DNA of 64,000 nucleotides from Planctomycetota bacterium (GCA_019186845.1 JABARW010000018.1:3180-67179), one strand, 5' to 3'. Numbered from the stretch's first letter, positions 46,697 to 57,740 are shown. Notes: generated from the sequence alone by a model not told the origin. Numbers and translations: made by a program.

Positions 46697-47620
46697 GTGC
46701 AGAAGCAAGTCGCGCTCATCACCGGCGCTGCCGGATTTCTGGGAAGGCACGTCTGCGCGGCCCTTGGCCGCCGCGGCTGGACCATTCGCGCCGTGGACAA
46801 CTTCTCGGCGGGCAGCCGAGAGCCCTTGCCCGGCGCCGAAATCATCGAAGCCGACGTCTCAACGGCGGCCGGCGCCGAGTTGGCGTGCCGCGGCGCGAGC
46901 GCTGTCGTGCATCTGGCGGCGTTTTCGTCTGTGCCGCGTTCCCTGGCCGACCCTGACCAGGCCCGGCGCGACACCGAGCAATCCACGCTGGATCTGATCC
47001 GCGCGGCATCGGCCCGGGGCATCAGTCGCTTTGTGTTCGCGAGCAGTTCCAGCGTTTATGGAGACGCCGGCAAGCCCCCCGTCCAGGAGGATTCGCCGCT
47101 GGCGCCCAAGAGCCCCTATGCCCAGGCCAAGCTCGCCAGCGAAGTTCACTTGCGGCAGGCGGCCCCGGGCCTCGACGCTGTTTGTCTGCGGTTTTTCAAC
47201 ATTTATGGTCCCGGCCAGCGGCCGGACGCCACTTACGCCGCCGCCATTCCACAGTTCTGCCGCCGCATCCTGCGCGACGAGGAAGTCACCATCTATGGCG
47301 ACGGCGAGCAAACCCGCGACTTCCTGTACGTGGAGGACGCCGCCCTGAGCGTGGCGGCGGCTTTGGAAGCGAAGCGACGCTTTGACGGCGCGCCGGTAAA
47401 CGTGGCCAGCGGCGAGTGCGTCACCATCAACCGCCTGGTGGCGCTGATTGGCGAGCTGGCGGGCCGCCGGCCTCGCGTGCGCCACGAAGGCGAGCGACGC
47501 GGCGATGTCCGCCTTTCCCAGGCGGATGTAAGCCGCGCGAAATCCTGGATGGACTTTCAGGCTGCCACCCCCCTGCAAGTGGGCCTCAGCCGCACCCTTG
47601 CCTGGCTCTCCGGCCATTGA
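46697..47620 (+). CDS. NAD-dependent nucleotide-sugar epimerase/dehydratase
   Basis: ITGAAGFLGRHV Rossmann motif and SPYAQAKLASE (YxxxK). GTG start. Confidence 0.8.
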   Translation: MQKQVALITGAAGFLGRHVCAALGRRGWTIRAVDNFSAGSREPLPGAEIIEADVSTAAGAELACRGASAVVHLAAFSSVPRSLADPDQARRDTEQSTLDLIRAASARGISRFVFASSSSVYGDAGKPPVQEDSPLAPKSPYAQAKLASEVHLRQAAPGLDAVCLRFFNIYGPGQRPDATYAAAIPQFCRRILRDEEVTIYGDGEQTRDFLYVEDAALSVAAALEAKRRFDGAPVNVASGECVTINRLVALIGELAGRRPRVRHEGERRGDVRLSQADVSRAKSWMDFQAATPLQVGLSRTLAWLSGH

Positions 47621-47674
47621 CGGGCCAGGCCCAACTGCGACAATGCGGTTCTGGGCCGGCAACCGGAGCAAACC

Positions 47675-48730
47675 TTGACACGACTCATACCAGCAGCCGT
47701 CGTGGTGGCGTTGTTGTGCGGGTTCGCCCAGGCCACCCACGCCCAGCCCAAAGTTCAGGGCGAGGATGACAAGCCGCGCGCCAAACGCGACATCAAGCCC
47801 TGCCGCGATGACAGCGGCGAGCTGCTGCCCCTGTTCAAGCTGTATGAGGTGGCGGGCCGCAAGTGGAAGGTCAAACGCGTGACCAGCCCCACCTCCGAAG
47901 GGGCGGACCGCTTTGACAAGTGGTTCGGCTATGAAGTGCTGGAGGTGCTCGAGGACCGCGCCATCGTGCGCCACACGGCCATGGATGCTTCGGGCGCGCC
48001 GCGCAAGGACGACACACCGGCCAACGTGGAGGTGCGATTTGACGCCGACAACGTCATGTTCGGCACGCCCATAGGCTGCAACAAGGTAAAGGAAGAAAGC
48101 ATCACGGTGGCGGCCGGCAAGTTTGACTGCATCCAGTATGCGGGCGCCCTGGACAACACGCGTATCTGGGTGAGTAAGGAGTATCCTTCGCTGGTCGTGC
48201 GCATGACGGGCAACAGCGGCTCATCTGAGGTGATAGAGTTCGAGCGCTTCAGCACGGACACCGCGCCGCCCAGGAAGGCCGCGGCCAGAGAGGGCGAGCT
48301 TGACTTCTCGCTCTATAAGCAGAAACGGAGCTGGCTGATCAAGACGCTCTCCATCAAGGGCGGAGTCAACCACCACGGCCACATGAAATACGAGGTCTCA
48401 AAGCCCACGGCCAAGGGCGCCGAACTCAAGATTACTCCGCTGAACGAGAGCAAGAAGCCCCTGAAAGACGCCAAGCCCCAGGAGAAAGTCGTACCCTTCT
48501 CAGATGAGGGGCGCGAATTCATCGAGCCGCCCTTGGGCGCGACGAAACTGCGGCTGGAGAAACGCAAGACGGCTGCCGGCGTCATGAGCTGTGTGGTTTA
48601 CCGCTTCAAGGATGACCAGGGGCGCGAAGTGCAGCTCTGGATGGCGCAAGACCTGCCGGGCCTGGTGGTGCGCACGCTCATCGGCGAAAACGGCGCCGAG
48701 GGCGGGTCAGAACTGATTGAGTTCAAGTGA
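47675..48730 (+). CDS. Secreted protein with two copies of an unrecognised ~140-aa domain (paralogue 1 of 3)
   Basis: Signal peptide (AVVVALLCGFAQATHA). Repeat 1 runs LFKLYEVAGRKWKVKRV...GKFDCIQYAG...WVSKEYPSLVVRM...EVIEFERF. Repeat 2 runs FSLYKQKRSWLIKT...GVMSCVVYRF...WMAQDLPGLVVRT...ELIEFK. TTG start. Confidence 0.6.
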   Translation: MTRLIPAAVVVALLCGFAQATHAQPKVQGEDDKPRAKRDIKPCRDDSGELLPLFKLYEVAGRKWKVKRVTSPTSEGADRFDKWFGYEVLEVLEDRAIVRHTAMDASGAPRKDDTPANVEVRFDADNVMFGTPIGCNKVKEESITVAAGKFDCIQYAGALDNTRIWVSKEYPSLVVRMTGNSGSSEVIEFERFSTDTAPPRKAAAREGELDFSLYKQKRSWLIKTLSIKGGVNHHGHMKYEVSKPTAKGAELKITPLNESKKPLKDAKPQEKVVPFSDEGREFIEPPLGATKLRLEKRKTAAGVMSCVVYRFKDDQGREVQLWMAQDLPGLVVRTLIGENGAEGGSELIEFK

Positions 48731-48746
48731 TGGGCGGGAGGCTGCC

Positions 48747-49745
48747 ATGCGCGTCACGTTATTGATTCTGTTGCTCTGCTGCCTGTCTCACACGGCCCTG
48801 GCTCAGGGCAAGCAGGAGACCAGCTTTCGACTCTATCAGGTGGCAGGCCGCACCTGGACCACCAAGAGCACCCCTGTTTCCAGCGGAGACGGCAACCTGG
48901 ACATTGGCTATGCGCGCCACGAAGTGCTCGAGGTCCATGAAACCTACGCGCTCTGCTCCTCCCTGCGCCTGGACCAGAACAAGAAGGTGCCAAAGGGTGT
49001 TGAACCCAGCGAATACCGGGTCGACTTCAAGCCTGACATCTACCCCTTTGCCGCGCCCGGCGGCGCGACGATGCTGGGCACGGAAAACGTGAAGGCGGCG
49101 GGCCTGACGTTTGAGTGCGAACTCTGGTCCAGCGGCAATCCGCCCTCGCGCTACTTCCGCAGCACCCGCTACCCGGGCCTCGTGGTCAAGGTCGAGGCCG
49201 GCTTTGGCAGGGAGGACCTCGTCGAGTTTGATGCCTTCAAGGAAGACGAGCCCCCGCCCCCACCCAAGAAAGGCGGCAAAAAGGGCGAGAAGGAACCTCC
49301 CAAGGCCGAAGAAGAGCCGCCGGCGGAGCCGGGCTTTGCCCTGTTCAAGTCCAGGCGAAGCTGGCTGATCCGCGAGCAGTCTCCCTCGGGCGAGGTCTAC
49401 CGCCGCTACGAGGTCACCAAAGTGGAGGCCGAAGGCGCGGAGCTGAAGGTGACCGAGCTGGATGCCGCGCGCAAGCCCGTCAAGGGCAAGCAGGAGGTCG
49501 CCCGGGTCGACTTTGGAGACGCTTCGAGCCCCTGGATTCAACCGCCCGCCGGGGCGCGCAAAAACCGGACAGAGCGGCGCAAGACGGCCTTTGGCCTGAT
49601 GGAGTGCGTGGTCTACGACGTGAAGGTAGACGGCCAGGATCGCCAGTTGTGGTACTCGGCGAAGTACCCGGGCCTGCTGGTGAGGGCGCGCCTGGGCGAG
49701 AAGGGCAAGGGCGGCACTTGGGAACTCGTAGAGTTCAAGGAGTAG
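48747..49745 (+). CDS. Secreted protein with two copies of the same domain (paralogue 2 of 3)
   Basis: GGGAGG RBS. Signal peptide MRVTLLILLLCCLSHTALA. FRLYQVAGRTWTTK...LTFECELW...STRYPGLVVKV...DLVEFDAF, then a PPPPPKKGGKKGEKEPPK linker, then FALFKSRRSWLIRE...GLMECVVYDV...YSAKYPGLLVRA...ELVEFKE. Confidence 0.65.
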   Translation: MRVTLLILLLCCLSHTALAQGKQETSFRLYQVAGRTWTTKSTPVSSGDGNLDIGYARHEVLEVHETYALCSSLRLDQNKKVPKGVEPSEYRVDFKPDIYPFAAPGGATMLGTENVKAAGLTFECELWSSGNPPSRYFRSTRYPGLVVKVEAGFGREDLVEFDAFKEDEPPPPPKKGGKKGEKEPPKAEEEPPAEPGFALFKSRRSWLIREQSPSGEVYRRYEVTKVEAEGAELKVTELDAARKPVKGKQEVARVDFGDASSPWIQPPAGARKNRTERRKTAFGLMECVVYDVKVDGQDRQLWYSAKYPGLLVRARLGEKGKGGTWELVEFKE

Positions 49746-49886
49746 GCAGACCTGCGCCGGGAATTGGGCAGTTGGTAAGTTTTGGTTGGAATTGGAGTTT
49801 GTCGGCTTGTTTGCTGGTTTGCGCACGTAACACTTGCACGCATGGGGCAATGGCCCTGCAGGGCCAATTCTTTACTGGAGAAACGA

Positions 49887-50960
49887 ATGAACCGCTTCTG
49901 GCTGGGCCTGCTGCTTTCGGGCATTTGCGCTGCACCTTCCGTCGTCTCGGCCCAGATGGGCGGCGAAGGCGGTGGCGATGACATGAAGGAGTACATTGAG
50001 GGCTACTTCAAGACCTGCGACACCAACAGCGACGGCAAGATTTCGCTGGAAGAAATCAAGAAGCTCTGGCTCGAGCGCGACAAGGCACTGGCAGAGGCCG
50101 GTGAAGACGAAGAGAAGCTCTCCAAGCTGTGGGAGAAGTACGCCTACGTCATGGACGTCTACACCTTTGCCCTGTCAGACGCCAACGATGACAGTGCGGC
50201 CACGAAGGAAGAAGTCAGCGCCTACTTCAAGAAAGTGGACAAGGGCGAGGAAACCAAGCTCACCCGCCACGACGTGGACCTGATCTTCGGCTACTCGTGG
50301 GACACGGAGATGGTGAAGTACGACAAGAACAAGGACGGCGCCATCAGCAAGGATGAGCTGGACGCCGAAGACCAGGGCGACTTCGACCAGTACGACACCA
50401 ACGGCGACGGCAAAGTCACGAGGGACGAATTCCTCGCCCTCATGCGCAAGAGCTACGACGTTGGCGGCGAAGAGACGCCCAAAGAGGGCCCCAAAGAAGG
50501 TCCGAAGGAAGGCCCCAAGGAAACGCCCGCCGGCGGCGAAATCGACAAGAGCGCCTTTGCCCTCTACACCAAGGAAGGCCGCTCCTGGACGGTCAAGAGC
50601 ATCACGACCATCGAGGGCATGGATCCCATCATCAGCTACGTGCAGACCGAGGTCGTGAAGGTCGCTGACGACCACGCCGAAATCAAGACGACCATCCTGG
50701 ACAAGGACCGCAAGCCCATGGCGGGCATGCCGGGCACCACGAGCAAAATTGAGTTCCGCGTTCCCAAGGCCGGCCAGCCGGGCAATGTGCCCAAGGTTGA
50801 AACCACCACCGAGACCATCAAGATTGAAGCCGGCGAGTTCGAGTGCATTGTGACTACCACCGAGCAGTCCAAGTCCTGGATCAGCAAGAAGTACCCGGGG
50901 CTGCTCGTAAAGATGGAGACCAAATCAACCAAGATGGAGCTGGTTGAGTTCAAGGAGTAG
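49887..50960 (+). CDS. Secreted EF-hand protein with one copy of the same domain (paralogue 3 of 3)
   Basis: Signal peptide MNRFWLGLLLSGICAAPSVVSA. EF-hand loops DTNSDGKISLEE, DKNKDGAISKDE, DTNGDGKVTRDE and a degenerate DANDDSAATKEE. (PKEG)x3 linker. FALYTKEGRSWTVK...GEFECIVTT...WISKKYPGLLVKM...ELVEFKE. Confidence 0.7.
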   Translation: MNRFWLGLLLSGICAAPSVVSAQMGGEGGGDDMKEYIEGYFKTCDTNSDGKISLEEIKKLWLERDKALAEAGEDEEKLSKLWEKYAYVMDVYTFALSDANDDSAATKEEVSAYFKKVDKGEETKLTRHDVDLIFGYSWDTEMVKYDKNKDGAISKDELDAEDQGDFDQYDTNGDGKVTRDEFLALMRKSYDVGGEETPKEGPKEGPKEGPKETPAGGEIDKSAFALYTKEGRSWTVKSITTIEGMDPIISYVQTEVVKVADDHAEIKTTILDKDRKPMAGMPGTTSKIEFRVPKAGQPGNVPKVETTTETIKIEAGEFECIVTTTEQSKSWISKKYPGLLVKMETKSTKMELVEFKE

Positions 50961-50979
50961 TAAACCCGCCGTACCATCA

Positions 50980-51012
50980 GCGGGCGCCCCTTGGGGCGCC
51001 CGCTTTTCTTTG
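50980..51012 (+). terminator. Rho-independent terminator
   Basis: AGCGGGCGCCC-CTTG-GGGCGCCCGCT (11-bp stem) followed by TTTCTTT, 20 nt after the stop at 50960. Confidence 0.8.
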
Positions 51013-51176: not shown

Positions 51177-51938
51177 ATGTTGACCAAGGGCCGGATTTCT
51201 CTGCTGATTGCCGCGGGCGGGCTGCTGCTCGTGGGACTGCTTGCTGCTGCGCTGTTTGTTCCGGGCGGCGAAGACGCCGCGCCGGAAGCCGCACCCAAGA
51301 AGAAGGAAACACCCGTCAAGATGGATGTCGCGGTCAACCCCGCCACGTCGCTGCCGGGCTCCATGGGTCTGCCCAAAGTGACGCCGGAGGCCACACCGAC
51401 GCCAGCCGTGAGCCCCACGCCCGCACAGCCCAAGGCCGAGCCGGCCAGGGAACCGGCCAAGCCTGCCATCATTGAGTACAAGGTTCAGCCCGGCGACATG
51501 CTGGCCAAGATCGCCAAGAAGTACGGCTGCAAGCTTGAAGACATCTACAAGCTCAACGAAGGGCTGACCCCGGCCACGGCCAACAAGATCCGCGTGGGCC
51601 AGGTCATCCGCGTGCCCAACGGCCCGGGCGCGGTAGTGGAGGCCGAGGCCGAGAAGCCAAAGGCCGAAGCCAAGGGCTTCCCCCAGCGCACCGTCAAAGC
51701 CGAGGCCGGCGACACGGCTTTCTCTCTGGCCATCGAGTACTACGGCTCGCGCAGCCTCTTCCGCATGATTGTCGAGGCCAACCCCAACTTGCCCTGGAGT
51801 GACCGGCTCAAGGGCGGCGAAGAAGTGCTCCTTCCCGCCTGGGGCGAACAGGTCGATGCCAAGCCAGCCGCGCAGCCCAGGAAGGAAGAAGACAAAGCCA
51901 CGGTCGAGCGTGACAGCATCATTCCGCCGCGCCGCTGA
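51177..51938 (+). CDS. Membrane-anchored protein with two LysM domains
   Basis: AAGGAGGG RBS. TM anchor (ISLLIAAGGLLLVGLLAAALF). LysM 1 is YKVQPGDMLAKIAKKYGCKLEDIYKLNEGL...IRVGQVIRVP. A second, divergent LysM is present near the C-terminus. Confidence 0.75.
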   Translation: MLTKGRISLLIAAGGLLLVGLLAAALFVPGGEDAAPEAAPKKKETPVKMDVAVNPATSLPGSMGLPKVTPEATPTPAVSPTPAQPKAEPAREPAKPAIIEYKVQPGDMLAKIAKKYGCKLEDIYKLNEGLTPATANKIRVGQVIRVPNGPGAVVEAEAEKPKAEAKGFPQRTVKAEAGDTAFSLAIEYYGSRSLFRMIVEANPNLPWSDRLKGGEEVLLPAWGEQVDAKPAAQPRKEEDKATVERDSIIPPRR

Positions 51939-51967: not shown

Positions 51968-53035
51968 TCAGGCCGGCTCTTTCTCTTTAAGCGCCTGTGC
52001 CGTCTCCTGCCATGAACCCGGCGACTTCGGAGGCGCCGGGGCATAGCCGTGCTCGACATACCAGGCGGCGGCGCGTCGCAGAGTTTCGCGCAGCGAGCGT
52101 GTGGGCATGCCCAGCTCGCGCAGGGCGCGGGAGTTGTCGTAGAACATGGGCTTCAGCGCCATGCGCACGCCCGCCAGGGGCACCTGCGGCGCCTTGCCGG
52201 TTACCTTGGCCTTGAGCTCGCTGAAGAAGGCCGCGGTCAATGCAACTGTCTTAGGCACTTTGAAGCGGGGCGCGGGCAGGCCGGTGATGTCGGCCAGCGT
52301 CTCGAAAATCTCGCGGATACTCGCGTTGATGTGAGCCAGGATGTAGCGCTCGCCCTTCTTGCCCTTCTGCGCGGCGAGAATGTGCCCGCGGGCGCAATCC
52401 TGCACGTCAATGACATTCAGGCCTGTCTCCATATAGCCCGGCATCTTGCGCAGCAGGAAGTCGAGTACGACGCGGCCCGTCGGCGTGGGCTTGACGTCAA
52501 AGGGGCCCATGGGCGCGGCAGGGTTCACGATAACCACGGGGGCGCCCTCCTGCGCCAGCCTGAGCACCCGCTGCTCGCCCAGAAACTTGCTGCGCGCGTA
52601 ATGCACAGCCAGTTCGTCCAGCCGCGGAAAGTCCTGCTCGTGGGGCAGGCGCGCTTCCCCACGCGGAGGCTTGCCCACGGTGACCACGCTGGAGGTGTGC
52701 ACGATGACGCTGCAGCCCGCCAGGGCGGCCGTTTTGGTGACGAGTTCGGCGCCTTTCTCATTGGCGTCGTAGATGTGTTTGACCTCGTGGCGGCGCAGGT
52801 AAAGCTGGTTCATGCCCGCCACGTGAAAGCAGGCATCGCAGCCCACCAGCCCGCGCCCCAGCGCCTTGGGGTCGTTCACGTCGCCGGTCACGACCTCGAC
52901 GCTCAGGCCCTTGATGGCGCGGTGATCGGCGTTGGCGCGCATCAGCACGCGCACTTCGACACCGTCTTCCAGCAGTTCCCGCACCACGGCCGAGCCGATG
53001 AAACCGCTGGCGCCGGTGACAAATGCCTTCTTCAT
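51968..53035 (-). CDS. hpnA: Hopanoid-associated sugar epimerase-like NAD-dependent epimerase/dehydratase (HpnA-like)
   Basis: VTGASGFIGSAVV, YARSK (YxxxK), VIVNPAAPMGPFDVKPTPTGRVV and GLNVIDVQDCARGH match what I recall of the HpnA family. Start at the ATG at 53035. Confidence 0.6.
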   Translation of the reverse strand: MKKAFVTGASGFIGSAVVRELLEDGVEVRVLMRANADHRAIKGLSVEVVTGDVNDPKALGRGLVGCDACFHVAGMNQLYLRRHEVKHIYDANEKGAELVTKTAALAGCSVIVHTSSVVTVGKPPRGEARLPHEQDFPRLDELAVHYARSKFLGEQRVLRLAQEGAPVVIVNPAAPMGPFDVKPTPTGRVVLDFLLRKMPGYMETGLNVIDVQDCARGHILAAQKGKKGERYILAHINASIREIFETLADITGLPAPRFKVPKTVALTAAFFSELKAKVTGKAPQVPLAGVRMALKPMFYDNSRALRELGMPTRSLRETLRRAAAWYVEHGYAPAPPKSPGSWQETAQALKEKEPA

Positions 53036-53111
53036 GCCCTCCAGAGTATGGGCGCCTCGCCCGCTTCGCAATTGGACTCGGGGGCCACCCTGCTAAATTG
53101 AGTGTTGCACC

Positions 53112-55922
53112 ATGGCCAGCACCCAAAGCCACTCCAACGCAGTCCCTGAACCGCCGCGCCCGGGCATGCGCCAGCGCGTGCTGCTGGGCCTGGCCGCCTT
53201 TGTGTGTCGGCGCGCCCTGTGGATCGTGCTCGCGGCCCTGCTGCTGGCCGGCTTGTCCGTCTGGCTCTCGATCACCCGCCTTTCCTTCATCACTGATCGC
53301 AACGCTCTGGTGGACCCCGAGGCCGAGTTCAACAAACGCTTCCTGCGCTTCAACGCGGCCTTTGGCGACCAGGAACTGATGCTGCTCTGCATCACGCCCG
53401 CACCGGGGCCCGTCAACAACCCTGACTTCGATCCGCCGCAGCCTTCGGCAGCGCAGCGCGCCGAAATGAAGCAGGCCGCCGCCAAGGTGGCCCGGGCGCT
53501 GCGCGCGCGCCCCGAGCTGTTTCCCCGCGTGATGGAGCGCGTGGACCCTGATAGTTTCGGCGGCACGCGCATGCTGTACATGCCGCTCAAAGACCTTGAA
53601 GCCACGGCAGTCCAGGTGGAAGCCGCCAGGCCCCTGATTGCCCGCGTGGCCCAGGAACCCGGCATCCCCGGCCTGCTGCGCGGCCTGCGCGAGAACATCG
53701 ACCAGGGCAGCGTGAGCGAGCTCAGCGGCGAACAGCTGGCCCGCGCCGGCGCCGAACTGACGTCGCTGATCAAGTCGCTTTGCGAATCTCTGGATCCCGC
53801 AAAGCCGGCCCAGGCGCCCGGCGGGCTCTTCGCATTCAACAGCAGCGACCCCAACCTCGACACCGATGGCTACTTCTTCACGTGGGAAGGGCGCATGCTC
53901 TTTGTGCTCCTCCTGCCGGCCAAGGACCACGCGGCGCTGAACCAGGTCAAGGAACCCATGGCCTTTGCGCGTGGCGTGCTGGCTGAAGTGCAGCGCGAGC
54001 ACCCGGGCCTGTCCCTGGGGCTCACGGGCCGCCCGGCCATCTACAGCGACGAAATGGAAACCAGCAACCGCGACATGACCAACGCCACCATCCTCGCGCT
54101 GCTTTCGGTCGCCCTTTTGTTCGCGCTCTGGTTTCGCGGGCTGGTGCGGCCCGCCCTGGGAGTGTTTTCGCTGGTGCTGGCCCTGTGCTGGACCATGGGC
54201 TTCACCACGCTGGCCCTGGGGCACCTCAACATTTTTGCCATGGTGTTTGGCGTGGTGCTCATCGGCCTGGGCATTGATTTCGCCATCCATGTGCTCAACC
54301 ACTACCGCCACGGCCTGGGGCGAGGCCTCTCGGTGCGCGAGGCTCTCTACGACTGCTACGCCGAAATCGGCGCGGGCACGGTGACCGGGGCGGTGACCAC
54401 GGCAGCCGCGCTGGCCACGGCCATGCTGACCGACTTCCTGGGCCTGGCGGAGCTTGGCCTGATCTGCGGCGTGGGCATTCTGTTCTGTCTGCTGTCGATG
54501 CTGGTGGTCCTGCCCGCGATGCTGGTGCTTTATGACCGCCGCCGCCTCGATGAGGGCGACCGCAACCTGCGCGAGGTCATGCGCGCGCGCACTCTAGAAG
54601 AGGCCCTGCACCCCCTTCCGCAGCGCACCACGCCCCTTCAGCGGGGCGCCGCGGCGGTCATCCTGGCCGCCATCCTCGCCGGGGTCGCCTCGGTCTCCTG
54701 GGCGGTCACTCACGGCTGGACGCCCTTTGACTACGACCTGCTCTCGCTCAACGACCCCTCGAGCGAAGCCGTGCATTGGGAGCAATTGCTGGTGCGCCAT
54801 GACCAGCGCGCCAGCTATGCCGTCAGCCTGCGAGAACGCCCCGAGGAGATCCGCGCCCTGCATGATCGCTTCCTGCCGCTCGTCGAGCAGGGCGTGATCC
54901 GTGGCCTGGAAACCATCATCCCGGAACACGAAGCACAGAGCCGGGCCCTGCTCGCGCGACTGGATGCCGCCCTGCCTGCCAGCTTCGCCGGCCAGAACCA
55001 GCCCAGCGACGCGCGGGCCGTGCAAAGCGCGGCCAGGACCCTGCAGGCGGGGCTGCGCACCCTGGCCGGGCGCGGCGAGAACTTTGGGCGCGCCTTTGGC
55101 CCCGCGGCCGACCAGGCGGCGGCCCTCGTGGAGCTTTGCCGCCTGTCGCCCGAGGGGGTCTCGCGGCGCCTGGCCGAAGTGGAGCCAGGCTTCTGCGGCG
55201 CCCTGCGCAAGGCGCTCTCCGACCTCAAGCGTGACGCATCACCGCCCCCCGTCACGCCCCAGACGCTGCCCGAAGTCATGCGCAACCGCTACGTGGGCCA
55301 CCTGGAAGACGGCCGCCCCCTCTACGCCCTGTACATCTACCCGCGCAAGGACATGTGGGACCACGAGAACGCCCGCGAATTCAACCGCCTGCTGCTGGCC
55401 ATCGACCCCGAGGCCACGGGTGTCACGATCCAGATTCAGGAGTCGGCGGATATCATCGTCAACGGCTTCGTGCGCAGTGTGCTTTACGCGGCGTTGGTCA
55501 TACTCACGCTGATCGCGCTGGACCTGCGGCGCCCCCTGGCCACGCTGATTTCGCTGCTGCCCCTGATGGGAGGGCTTGCCATGCTCGGCGGTGTCATGGT
55601 GTTCAGCGGCCTGAAGTTCAACTTCGCCAACTTCTTTGCCGTGCCCATTTTGATCGGCACCACGGTGGACGCCGGCGTCTACCTCGTGCACAGCCAGCGC
55701 CACGGTGACCCCGTGCGCACCCTGCGCCAGACGCGCGGCGCCTGCGTGCTGTGCTCGCTCACCACGGCCCTGGGCTTTGGCACGATGATGATCGCCCACC
55801 ACCGCGGCGTCATCAGCCTTGGCGCCATTCTTACCGTCGGGACCTTTGCCTCGATGCTTGTGGCCTTCTTCGTGGTGCCGGTCGTGCTGGGCTGGTTCAA
55901 CGCACGCGGCAAGCGCGTCTGA
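53112..55922 (+). CDS. RND/MMPL-superfamily transporter (HpnN-like)
   Basis: 936 aa with two six-helix hydrophobic blocks, each preceded by a large soluble loop. It is divergent from the hpnA-like gene. Confidence 0.6.
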   Translation: MASTQSHSNAVPEPPRPGMRQRVLLGLAAFVCRRALWIVLAALLLAGLSVWLSITRLSFITDRNALVDPEAEFNKRFLRFNAAFGDQELMLLCITPAPGPVNNPDFDPPQPSAAQRAEMKQAAAKVARALRARPELFPRVMERVDPDSFGGTRMLYMPLKDLEATAVQVEAARPLIARVAQEPGIPGLLRGLRENIDQGSVSELSGEQLARAGAELTSLIKSLCESLDPAKPAQAPGGLFAFNSSDPNLDTDGYFFTWEGRMLFVLLLPAKDHAALNQVKEPMAFARGVLAEVQREHPGLSLGLTGRPAIYSDEMETSNRDMTNATILALLSVALLFALWFRGLVRPALGVFSLVLALCWTMGFTTLALGHLNIFAMVFGVVLIGLGIDFAIHVLNHYRHGLGRGLSVREALYDCYAEIGAGTVTGAVTTAAALATAMLTDFLGLAELGLICGVGILFCLLSMLVVLPAMLVLYDRRRLDEGDRNLREVMRARTLEEALHPLPQRTTPLQRGAAAVILAAILAGVASVSWAVTHGWTPFDYDLLSLNDPSSEAVHWEQLLVRHDQRASYAVSLRERPEEIRALHDRFLPLVEQGVIRGLETIIPEHEAQSRALLARLDAALPASFAGQNQPSDARAVQSAARTLQAGLRTLAGRGENFGRAFGPAADQAAALVELCRLSPEGVSRRLAEVEPGFCGALRKALSDLKRDASPPPVTPQTLPEVMRNRYVGHLEDGRPLYALYIYPRKDMWDHENAREFNRLLLAIDPEATGVTIQIQESADIIVNGFVRSVLYAALVILTLIALDLRRPLATLISLLPLMGGLAMLGGVMVFSGLKFNFANFFAVPILIGTTVDAGVYLVHSQRHGDPVRTLRQTRGACVLCSLTTALGFGTMMIAHHRGVISLGAILTVGTFASMLVAFFVVPVVLGWFNARGKRV

Positions 55923-55995
55923 TTGCCGTAAATCCGGCGGAATGCCCAAGGCCGATTCGCGTTATGATAGAGTAAGTGCCAGGGCCGGAGAGAGC

Positions 55996-56841
55996 ATGCG
56001 CGTCTTCTACTCGCTGGTGATTGCCGCGGTTTTCCTGCTGGGCGTGGGCGTTTCGCAGGCCCAGGAGGCCAAGAGTCCCGATCTGGGTCTCAGCGTTTTC
56101 AAGTTGGGCGAAGTCAACGCCAACGACAAGCAGGCTGGCGAGGCCATTGACAAGCTGGCCAAACACCTGAGCGATCAGGTCAAGGATGCGAAGTTCGCGC
56201 GGCGCGGCGTGCGCAACAAGCCCGACGACACCCTGACCCTGCTCAAGGACGACAAGAACCCCACGGCCCTGGCCATCGTCAGCCCCGGCTTTTACTTCAA
56301 GCACAAGGACAGCCTGAAGCTGACGGCCCTGGCCGAAGCGCGGCGCGGCGGATTCAACGGCGAACAGTACACGCTGGTGGGCAACGTGAAGGCCGAGAAG
56401 TACCCCGAAGGCAAGAAGGTTGCCACGACGCTCGACGCCGACCTCGACTGGCTCGACAAGGTCGTGCTGCCAAGGCCCCAGGGCGCCAAGCCCGTGCAGT
56501 GGGTCCATTACGACAACCTCGCCGACGCGGGCTACCTGTTTGTAGACGAGCCCAAAAGCGCGCCGGACTTCATCCTGCTGGACCGCGTGAGCCTGAAGGT
56601 CTTCCAGGACGACGCGGACCTCAAGGCTCTGGTCGCGGGAATCACAAGCGAATTGCTGCCCCAGGACCTGGTCGTGGAGGTGGATGGCCGCCTGGGCAAA
56701 CACCGGGACGCCACGATCAAGGTGCTGGCGGAACTCGACAAGACGCCCGAGGGCAAAAAGCTTGGCGAACTGCTTCAGACCGCCACCTTTCCCGCCCCCG
56801 ACAAAAAGCGGCTCGAAGCCGCAGCCGCCCGTTACCAGTAG
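55996..56841 (+). CDS. Secreted protein, possibly with a periplasmic substrate-binding-like fold
   Basis: GGAGAGAG RBS. Signal peptide MRVFYSLVIAAVFLLGVGVSQA. The fold assignment is only an impression. Confidence 0.4.
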   Translation: MRVFYSLVIAAVFLLGVGVSQAQEAKSPDLGLSVFKLGEVNANDKQAGEAIDKLAKHLSDQVKDAKFARRGVRNKPDDTLTLLKDDKNPTALAIVSPGFYFKHKDSLKLTALAEARRGGFNGEQYTLVGNVKAEKYPEGKKVATTLDADLDWLDKVVLPRPQGAKPVQWVHYDNLADAGYLFVDEPKSAPDFILLDRVSLKVFQDDADLKALVAGITSELLPQDLVVEVDGRLGKHRDATIKVLAELDKTPEGKKLGELLQTATFPAPDKKRLEAAAARYQ

Positions 56842-56846
56842 GCCCC

Positions 56847-57740
56847 ATGACGCTGACCCACACCCAATCCGCCTTTGACCTGATGCGCCGCCGCCGCTTC
56901 TGGGCCAACATGGGCTTGGGCGCCTTGCTGGTGCTCATGGGGCTGGTGCTGGGCGTATGCAGCTCCTGCCAGAGCGTGCCCGAAGATACTTTCAAGACCA
57001 CGGGCCCCCTGACTCCGGACAAAGTCGAAGACTACGGTCGGCTGGTGGCCGAAGGCCGTGACCTCTACGAAGCGCAACCCCGAAACGAAGAACGCCTGCG
57101 CAACAGCGTCTCGCGCTTCGACCATGCCATGACGCTCAAGAGCGACGACTACGACACGCTCTGGCAGGGTGCCCGCAGTTGCGCGTGGCTGGCGGCCTAT
57201 GCCGGCCAAAAGACCGACCGCGTCGAGTTCTCCAAGGCCGGCCTGCGTTACGCGCAGACGGCCCTCAAGGTCAAGCCCGCGGGCACGGAAGGGCTGTTCT
57301 ACTTCGCGGTGCTCAGCGGCCGCCTGGGCGAAAACGACAACAGCTACGGCCTGGACGCTGTCACGAAGATTGAAGAGAGCTGCAAGAGAATCATCGAAAG
57401 CGGCGCCGATGTCGCCTACGGCGGCGCCCATCGCGTTTACGGCATGCTCCTGCTGCGCGCGCCGGCACCGCCCACCAGCATCGGCTCGTTGCGCAACGCC
57501 CGAAAGCAGCTCGAAGCGGCCCTGGCCAAAGCACCGGACTGGCCGGAGAATCACCTGTGTGCGGCAGAGATGGAGTTCGCCTGGGCCAAGGACCGCGAAA
57601 AGCCGGAGTTTGCCGCCCAGGCGCGCGAGCGCCTTCAGAAGTATCTGCTGGCGCCCGAGGCCCGGGCGCCCCAGGGCCACGAGTTCGAGTTTGAGCGCTG
57701 GAAAGAAGACGCGCTCAAACTCCTCGCCGAGAATCGCTGA
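56847..57740 (+). CDS. Helical-repeat lipoprotein (possibly TatT-like TPR protein)
   Basis: ATG at 56847, 5 nt after the upstream stop. Hydrophobic anchor ending LVLGVCSSC. All-helical repeat sequence. The longer track ORF overlaps the upstream gene and was rejected. Confidence 0.45.
   Translation: MTLTHTQSAFDLMRRRRFWANMGLGALLVLMGLVLGVCSSCQSVPEDTFKTTGPLTPDKVEDYGRLVAEGRDLYEAQPRNEERLRNSVSRFDHAMTLKSDDYDTLWQGARSCAWLAAYAGQKTDRVEFSKAGLRYAQTALKVKPAGTEGLFYFAVLSGRLGENDNSYGLDAVTKIEESCKRIIESGADVAYGGAHRVYGMLLLRAPAPPTSIGSLRNARKQLEAALAKAPDWPENHLCAAEMEFAWAKDREKPEFAAQARERLQKYLLAPEARAPQGHEFEFERWKEDALKLLAENR

Follow-up and report, generated by a model that had tools for sequence, protein, structure and literature searches.

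What purpose is served by three consecutive genes of a planctomycete that encode exported proteins assembled from one and the same repeated domain? The genes, here called g1, g2 and g3, occupy positions 47675-50960 on the + strand of a 64,000-nucleotide stretch of DNA from Planctomycetota bacterium (GCA_019186845.1, JABARW010000018.1:3180-67179). The whole stretch is referred to below as the window, and a window position equals the position on contig C8 minus 3179. A preliminary description had reported three same-strand genes with signal peptides and almost the same C-terminal peptide, built from five copies of a domain of about 140 amino acids that it could not place in any family. The explanation favored here, to which a probability of roughly 0.6 is given, is that g1-g3 make up one of several tandem arrays, all encoding Sec-exported proteins of the envelope that are made from shortened DUF3108-like barrels, a module which one Planctomycetota family would have multiplied through repeated duplication of domains and genes.

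The genes and their parts, all on the + strand, are laid out as follows.

47675..48730, +: g1, 351 amino acids, TTG start after GGAG; signal peptide (about residues 1-23) and two barrel domains
47831..48250, +: g1 domain 1; match of profile A2 at C8:51010-51429, E 5e-46
48299..48730, +: g1 domain 2; profile match at C8:51478-51909, E 9e-46
48747..49745, +: g2, 332 amino acids, ATG start after GGGAGG; signal peptide (about residues 1-19) and two barrels
48816..49238, +: g2 domain 1; profile match at C8:51995-52417, E 4.4e-51
49326..49742, +: g2 domain 2; profile match at C8:52505-52921, E 6.5e-47
49887..50960, +: g3, 357 amino acids, ATG start after GGAG; signal peptide, four-EF-hand domain, flexible linker and one barrel
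49974..50462, +: compact four-EF-hand domain of g3, mature residues about 8-170; predicted local distance difference test (pLDDT) mostly 87-97 in 10-residue blocks
50463..50534, +: disordered linker of g3 including PKEGPKEGPKEGPKE; pLDDT below 50 at mature residues 173-192
50547..50957, +: barrel domain of g3; profile match at C8:53726-54136, E 2.1e-49

The maximal + strand open reading frames (ORFs), 47675-48730, 48717-49745 and 49782-50960, are consecutive, and all frames are open. Ribosome-binding sites of the GGAG type precede the chosen starts, so that g2 and g3 are shorter than their maximal ORFs; the ATG of g2 lies 16 nucleotides past the g1 stop. Each N-terminus, judged by eye, is basic, then hydrophobic, and ends as an AxA-type signal peptide (...ATHA|QP in g1, ...ALA|QG in g2 and ...VSA|QM in g3). 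The C-termini read SELIEFK in g1, WELVEFKE in g2 and MELVEFKE in g3, as first described. A linker rich in Pro, Lys and Glu accompanies the two barrels of g2.

The count of five domain copies, two each in g1 and g2 and one in g3, also held up. Aligned from end to end, the copies have 16 columns without variation, and each of the ten BLASTP comparisons between them reaches significance, with E from 1e-9 to 4e-41 and 28-48% identity across 115-156 columns; the figure of 48% belongs to the pair formed by g1 domain 2 and g2 domain 2. DNA words shared within the region reach 14-15 nucleotides at most, the longest falling at the EFKE-stop codons, and there is no duplication at the DNA level. In a tree of domains, the nearest of the rows shown is, for four of the five window domains, the corresponding domain from a sister genome (86-99% identity), and the fifth pairs with its sister-genome counterpart (support 99/89). 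An AGxFxC motif keeps its Cys in 89% of 203 domains, and others have Ala or Thr instead; since these residues can stand in for it, the Cys is probably structural rather than catalytic.

What, then, is the domain? An AlphaFold2 model computed from an 18-sequence domain alignment (pLDDT 94) has one N-terminal helix and nine strands. Foldseek searches of the PDB placed 4fvs_A, a putative lipoprotein (BDI_3050) of Parabacteroides distasonis that belongs to PF21347, at the top for both the domain model (E 1.4e-4) and the full-length g3 model (E 6.6e-5), with a probability of 1.00. The match has a template-modeling score (TM) of only 0.54 (query) or 0.37 (target) and a root-mean-square deviation of about 9 Å. 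Below it rank barrels of the LolA superfamily, nitrobindin, VioE, MucB and LolA; 3fzx, an exported Bacteroides fragilis protein of PF11306, is absent from the top 50 Foldseek matches. The LolA/LolB-type matches are weak (3buu with E 3e-3 and TM 0.28; LolA 9gtx with E 0.053), and neither the Pfam scan nor the profile searches of the PDB gave any LolA/LolB sequence match.

Sequence comparison points the same way. When a 90-sequence profile of the family was run against 177,635 PDB sequences, three matches were obtained at E<=10, and those below E 1 were solely 4fvs_A (0.0044) and 3fzx_A (0.76). The motif ET(I/V)xxPAGxFxC, including its Cys, is common to the family profile and to both structures. 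The 18-sequence profile gave nothing meaningful against the PDB, its sole match being a ribosomal protein at E 0.79. The structure 3fzx is the reference structure of DUF3108 and has been described as a YmcC fold (PMC4364669). Among 112 representatives of the family, 36 match PF21347 (DUF3108_like; best E 4.9e-6) and 16 match PF11306 (DUF3108; best E 3.7e-7), with scores under the Pfam cut-offs, and no other Pfam family occurs in more than three members, save the EF-hand families on fused N-terminal parts. Two more divergent paralogues, on contig C3 of the genome to which the window belongs, score 29.9 and 28.6 bits with PF11306, whose cut-off is 26; one of them aligns across 125 residues, and the profile of the window domain detects both paralogues with E of about 1e-7 to 2e-9. 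At the level of sequence similarity these paralogues bridge the window domain and DUF3108. Because the fold search, the PDB profile search and the Pfam matches converge, the domain is assigned, from sequence and predicted structure, as a remote, shortened and very divergent member of the DUF3108/DUF3108_like superfamily with a predicted YmcC/LolA-like barrel, and it is very probably not a new fold. The domain that the preliminary description could not place can thus be assigned, and the superfamily in question, far from being well characterized, has no known function. A literature search returned no paper on this domain family.

The second component of the locus is the N-terminal part of g3. 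EF-hand models of Pfam (EF-hand_5/1/6/7; PF13499, PF00036, PF13202 and PF13405) match it with 57-65 bits against cut-offs of 25-30. Four 12-residue loops can be recognized, all canonical, with D1 and E12 invariant or nearly so across 19 homologues, and the predicted structure has four helix-loop-helix units with paired short strands, its closest folds being calexcitin, calcineurin B and the sarcoplasmic calcium-binding protein. The preliminary description was right about the presence of EF-hands and of the (PKEG)x3 linker, PKEGPKEGPKEGPKE, which is found in g3 as stated, and was mistaken in counting three canonical loops and a degenerate one. Linker length and sequence differ among homologues. 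An identity with lanmodulin was also considered and rejected (NCBIfam NF053806, 16.4 bits against a cut-off of 135); by eye, the loops are without the lanmodulin-type Pro at position 2.

On these sequence features the EF-hand domain is predicted to bind calcium. The full-length g3 model has a mean pLDDT of 86.8 and a predicted TM-score (pTM) of 0.52, with no confident geometry between domains. Given this pTM and the linker pLDDT below 50, the barrel and the EF-hand domain are modeled as independent, well-folded units on a disordered linker, and an arrangement of the 'lid over barrel' kind receives neither support nor exclusion from the model. The suggestion that the module may respond to calcium is plausible for proteins of the g3 type and does not extend to g1 and g2, which carry no EF-hands.

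How far does the module reach beyond this locus? The genome to which the window belongs (3.74 Mb in 89 contigs, 88% complete) contains 20 domain matches by profile search, and 3-20 matches are found in every one of 23 genomes of the same Planctomycetota family. Outside the family the domain was detected in one of two genomes of the same order, one of five of the same class and none of 11 from the rest of the phylum. The earlier view of an exported module expanded in one lineage is borne out, and elsewhere in the phylum the module is almost absent. Worldwide, an exhaustive search of 1.84 billion representatives yielded 410 clusters at E<=1e-3. For g2, a search of 5.8 billion proteins found only 17 homologues, and in none of them does a precomputed Pfam annotation cover the barrel. 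Public records name such proteins 'hypothetical protein' or 'EF-hand domain-containing protein', from metagenome-assembled genomes (MAGs) of Planctomycetes/Planctomycetota; the closest genome, 'Planctomycetota bacterium isolate PLA1', was the only close MAG from a single-protein scan.

Proteins of the family carry one to four domains each, and in 140 of 165 no more than 5 residues follow the last domain. EF-hands occur in 32 of the 112 representatives. In the domain tree, second domains of the two-domain genes from different genera group in a single clade (100/97) and the g1-type first domains in another (97/80), which implies that the two-domain architecture is old; two-domain genes have also been duplicated independently in the genus of the window and in another genus.

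Several other arrangements of the module were observed in the same genome. A four-gene array of more divergent paralogues, two of which pass the Pfam DUF3108 cut-off, lies on the - strand at C3:64568-68708, and in each of its genes a (PKPEPK)-type repeat follows the signal peptide, with an N-terminal sub-motif, 'LPWT...', that recurs among them. A second conserved type of array, at C31:22661-25757 (-), comprises genes with one, three and two barrel domains, the first of them a lipoprotein; its conserved neighbors in other genera (among them MraZ-, PyrF-, TPR- and Ser/Thr-kinase-like genes, by eye) differ from those of the window array. Single barrel copies with other N-terminal parts are encoded on contigs C23, C26, C70 and C75. 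For instance, C23:16124-18451 encodes a 766-residue protein whose barrel, at the C-terminus, is accompanied by a single transmembrane helix and a long acidic, Pro-rich stretch that is presumably cytoplasmic, and C26:45024-46535 encodes an exported protein of 495 residues in which two N-terminal repeats of about 170 residues, of an unrecognized kind, precede the barrel.

Three further features frame the array and its downstream neighbor.

47617..47644, +: sigma-70-like promoter match upstream of g1, TTGACG-16-GACAAT with TG, from a consensus scan
50979..51004, +: terminator-like hairpin, 11-bp stem with 10 GC pairs, TTGG loop and T-rich tail
51177..51938, +: LysM partner gene, 253 amino acids; N-terminal membrane anchor, LysM and a second LysM-like unit

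The promoter match is weak evidence, as the consensus scan gave one site where 0.5 is expected by chance. The spacer between g2 and g3 (49746-49886, 141 nucleotides) contains a 16-nucleotide palindrome, TGGCCCTGCAGGGCCA, at 49851-49866, 21 nucleotides upstream of the g3 ATG, which may be a weak terminator or operator. The hairpin begins 19 nucleotides past the g3 stop, and a 216-nucleotide spacer separates g3 from the LysM gene.

The LysM protein is the most constant companion of the array. Its LysM unit (PF01476) scores 48-49 bits against a cut-off of 20.9. When 17 arrays from 12 genomes were compared, the directly downstream LysM gene was the only neighbor retained with arrays of the window type. 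The orthologue is single-copy in 22 of the 23 family genomes, and in at least 19 genomes from seven genera it starts about 200 nucleotides, or in one genome about 1 kb, past the point where a barrel gene ends. The single-barrel genes of these arrays in other genomes encode EF-hands in all nine cases tested, and seven of them are directly upstream of the LysM gene. The unit conserved throughout the family is thus an EF-hand-barrel gene followed by a membrane-anchored double-LysM gene. A C-terminal peptide, TVERDSxIPxR(R/K), was also seen to be conserved in all 12 LysM orthologues read.

Little else in the neighborhood travels with the array. It had been pointed out that the genes sit between envelope-sugar genes and a LysM gene: the LysM side of this setting is kept across genera, whereas the GT4 and epimerase genes recur upstream in the closest genome only, and a link between them and the array was rejected on that ground. 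Other conserved neighbors of arrays look like unrelated housekeeping genes by eye (among them NuoF-like and formate-dehydrogenase-like subunits, a histidine kinase with its response regulator, MraZ, PyrF and AroA). Downstream of the array, window positions 51968-57740 hold a lipid export locus of the hopanoid or sterol type.

How might such proteins work? In their architecture, g1 and g2 each present two barrels joined by a flexible Pro/Lys-rich linker, and g3 tethers a compact four-EF-hand domain, predicted to bind calcium, to a single barrel through its disordered linker. By analogy with the related LolA-like and YmcC-like barrels, the barrels are most likely periplasmic binding modules, either for a hydrophobic ligand or for a partner protein of the envelope. 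LolA, MucB, nitrobindin and VioE, all relatives in fold, bind hydrophobic ligands. The conserved LysM partner would place the activity of g3-type proteins near peptidoglycan, where calcium on the EF-hand domain could modulate the barrel. A more ambitious version is conceivable and rather improbable, in which the EF-hand-barrel and double-LysM genes would constitute a calcium-switched envelope device specific to this family: the barrel would hold a hydrophobic envelope component or an outer-membrane partner beside peptidoglycan, with the two-barrel paralogues acting as specialized carriers. A hopanoid, a lipoprotein or a lipid of the lipopolysaccharide type might be the cargo of such a device.

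A number of observations weigh against the assignment and the role built upon it. No window copy reaches a Pfam cut-off. Scans of g1-g3 with Pfam and NCBIfam gave EF-hand matches and a single DUF3108 hint, at residues 288-333 of g1, which scores 15.0 bits against the 26 required for PF11306; PF21347 scores 11.9 bits on g1 against a cut-off of 27, and the Pfam scan found no match to the DUF3108 families on g2 and none at E<=1 on g3. The TM-scores to solved structures are modest, 0.54 at most. With about 140 residues (142-143 profile positions), the domain falls some 50-70 residues under the DUF3108 barrels of 200-210, and the alignment to 4fvs leaves about 60 target residues unmatched. To our knowledge, experiments have established a function for none of the DUF3108 and DUF3108_like proteins, so that a binding role for the barrels is argued solely from analogy of fold. 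Finally, the strong terminator-like hairpin at 50979-51004 separates g3 from the LysM gene; their adjacency need not mean co-transcription, and the two may be separately transcribed.

The alternative that survives best is that the proteins are not carriers of ligands. Together with the LysM protein they would be calcium-stabilized connectors of the envelope, linking the inner membrane, peptidoglycan and the outer membrane through protein contacts, as GfcB/YmcC does. This LolA-like outer-membrane lipoprotein forms complexes with its partners GfcC and GfcD (PMC8592465). The tight, family-wide pairing with a membrane-anchored double-LysM gene would suit a connector, as would long flexible linkers strung with multiple beads, which are fitting for a spacer or tether; some single-domain paralogues are lipoproteins with a lipobox (...AVAC|GG), and one paralogue is anchored via a transmembrane helix. 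However, the signal peptides of g1, g2 and g3 are ordinary, without a lipobox by eye, the genome has a conventional OmpA-domain protein, and a terminator-like hairpin stands between g3 and the LysM gene. This reading is considered unlikely.

A more doubtful proposal, quite unlikely as the evidence stands, assigns the barrels to the adjacent hopanoid-type export genes. They would act as periplasmic lipid carriers that deliver hopanoids or similar lipids to the outer membrane, in company with HpnA, an HpnN-like RND pump and a BstC-like protein. The genes in question are immediately downstream: HpnA (TIGR03466) scores 377.7 bits, above its cut-off, the divergent HpnN-like RND transporter (TIGR03480) scores 486 bits and also resembles BstA (237 bits), and the ORF at 56499-57740 has a BstC-like stretch (NF045602, 61.9 bits). 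The affinity of the fold neighbors in the LolA superfamily, MucB, nitrobindin and VioE for lipids and other hydrophobic molecules is in keeping with such a role. Yet the HpnN-like and BstC-like matches are under their curated cut-offs, which for the former is 752 bits. Moreover, when the link to HpnA and HpnN was examined across 41 genomes, the adjacency proved to be confined to the three genomes of the window's genus, apart from a further genus that has HpnA alone next to the array. Elsewhere in the family, in the genera checked, 20 kb to hundreds of kb separate the array from the HpnN gene, or the two lie on different contigs, and planctomycetes without the barrel family can have HpnN-like genes as well.

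It is very improbable that the domain represents a genuinely new fold, or a family without described relatives. The absence of any Pfam or NCBIfam model at cut-off on the three barrel regions of the window, and the public annotation of the proteins as hypothetical, are what such a view would predict; it is contradicted by the fold match to 4fvs, by 4fvs and 3fzx being the only PDB sequence matches at E<1, by the recurrent sub-threshold Pfam matches and by the paralogues above threshold. The idea that the triplet is an assembly or duplication artefact, a doubt that the preliminary description had itself raised, or a set of decaying pseudogenes, is refuted: nothing was found in its favor, the copies are too dissimilar (28-48% identity), no DNA repeat exceeds 15 nucleotides, all frames are open, homologous arrays are present in many assemblies, and an independent MAG preserves the gene order of the window with domains 86-99% identical.

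Taken together, it is the reading of the locus as a lineage-specific array of shortened DUF3108-like barrels that the evidence favors, and its value lies in testable handles on a DUF superfamily rather than in a new principle, function being something we infer. Structures have been solved for both DUF3108 and DUF3108_like, envelope families that are widespread and have no known function. The planctomycete branch offers a minimal barrel of about 140 residues, in up to about 20 copies in a genome of 3.7 Mb, and a recurrent fusion to a calcium-binding domain beside a conserved peptidoglycan-binding partner. Calcium binding, binding of a ligand or partner and location in the envelope are predictions open to test, and they could help to assign a function to the superfamily as a whole while adding to the poorly known envelope biology of Planctomycetota. 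Should the calcium-switched device turn out to be real, it would provide the first function for the DUF3108-like superfamily and represent, in Planctomycetota, a novel way in which calcium regulates transport or tethering in the periplasm.

Comparison with known systems helps to separate what is familiar in these proteins from what is not. The LolA/LolB-like and YmcC (GfcB) proteins have an antiparallel barrel or sandwich, partly open and preceded by a helix, that resembles the fold predicted for the module, and both they and the module would be located in the periplasm or at the outer membrane. The likeness is one of fold only, seen in the matches to 3buu, 9gtx, 3bk5 and MucB (6jau) with TM-scores of 0.28-0.51 and E of 3e-3 or weaker, and has no sequence signal; nor are Lol or Gfc partner genes found near the array. 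The DUF3108 proteins proper are single-domain proteins of about 210 residues, against which the five window copies score 15 bits or less. Their 'YmcC-like fold' representative 3fzx, the second-best sequence match in the PDB, has in common with the planctomycete module the conserved motif with its Cys. Among compact four-EF-hand proteins, g3 resembles the rest in its four 12-residue loops and compact predicted fold; unlike calexcitin, calcineurin B, the sarcoplasmic protein and secreted bacterial EF-hand proteins, it has its EF-hands exported and fused to a DUF3108-like barrel. The closest match is 4fvs, which ranks first both in fold and in PDB sequence. It, too, is an exported envelope protein with the strand motif E(T/S)IxxPAGxF(D/E)C. 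The planctomycete module is shorter (about 140 against about 200 residues), with a shorter stretch from the first strands to the AGxFxC hairpin, and unlike 4fvs it occurs in one to four tandem copies, almost always at the C-terminus, and in fusions to EF-hands or other N-terminal parts. The uncharacterized DUF3108-like barrel fold was thus already known, and what is new here is its shortened, tandemly repeated and EF-hand-fused version.

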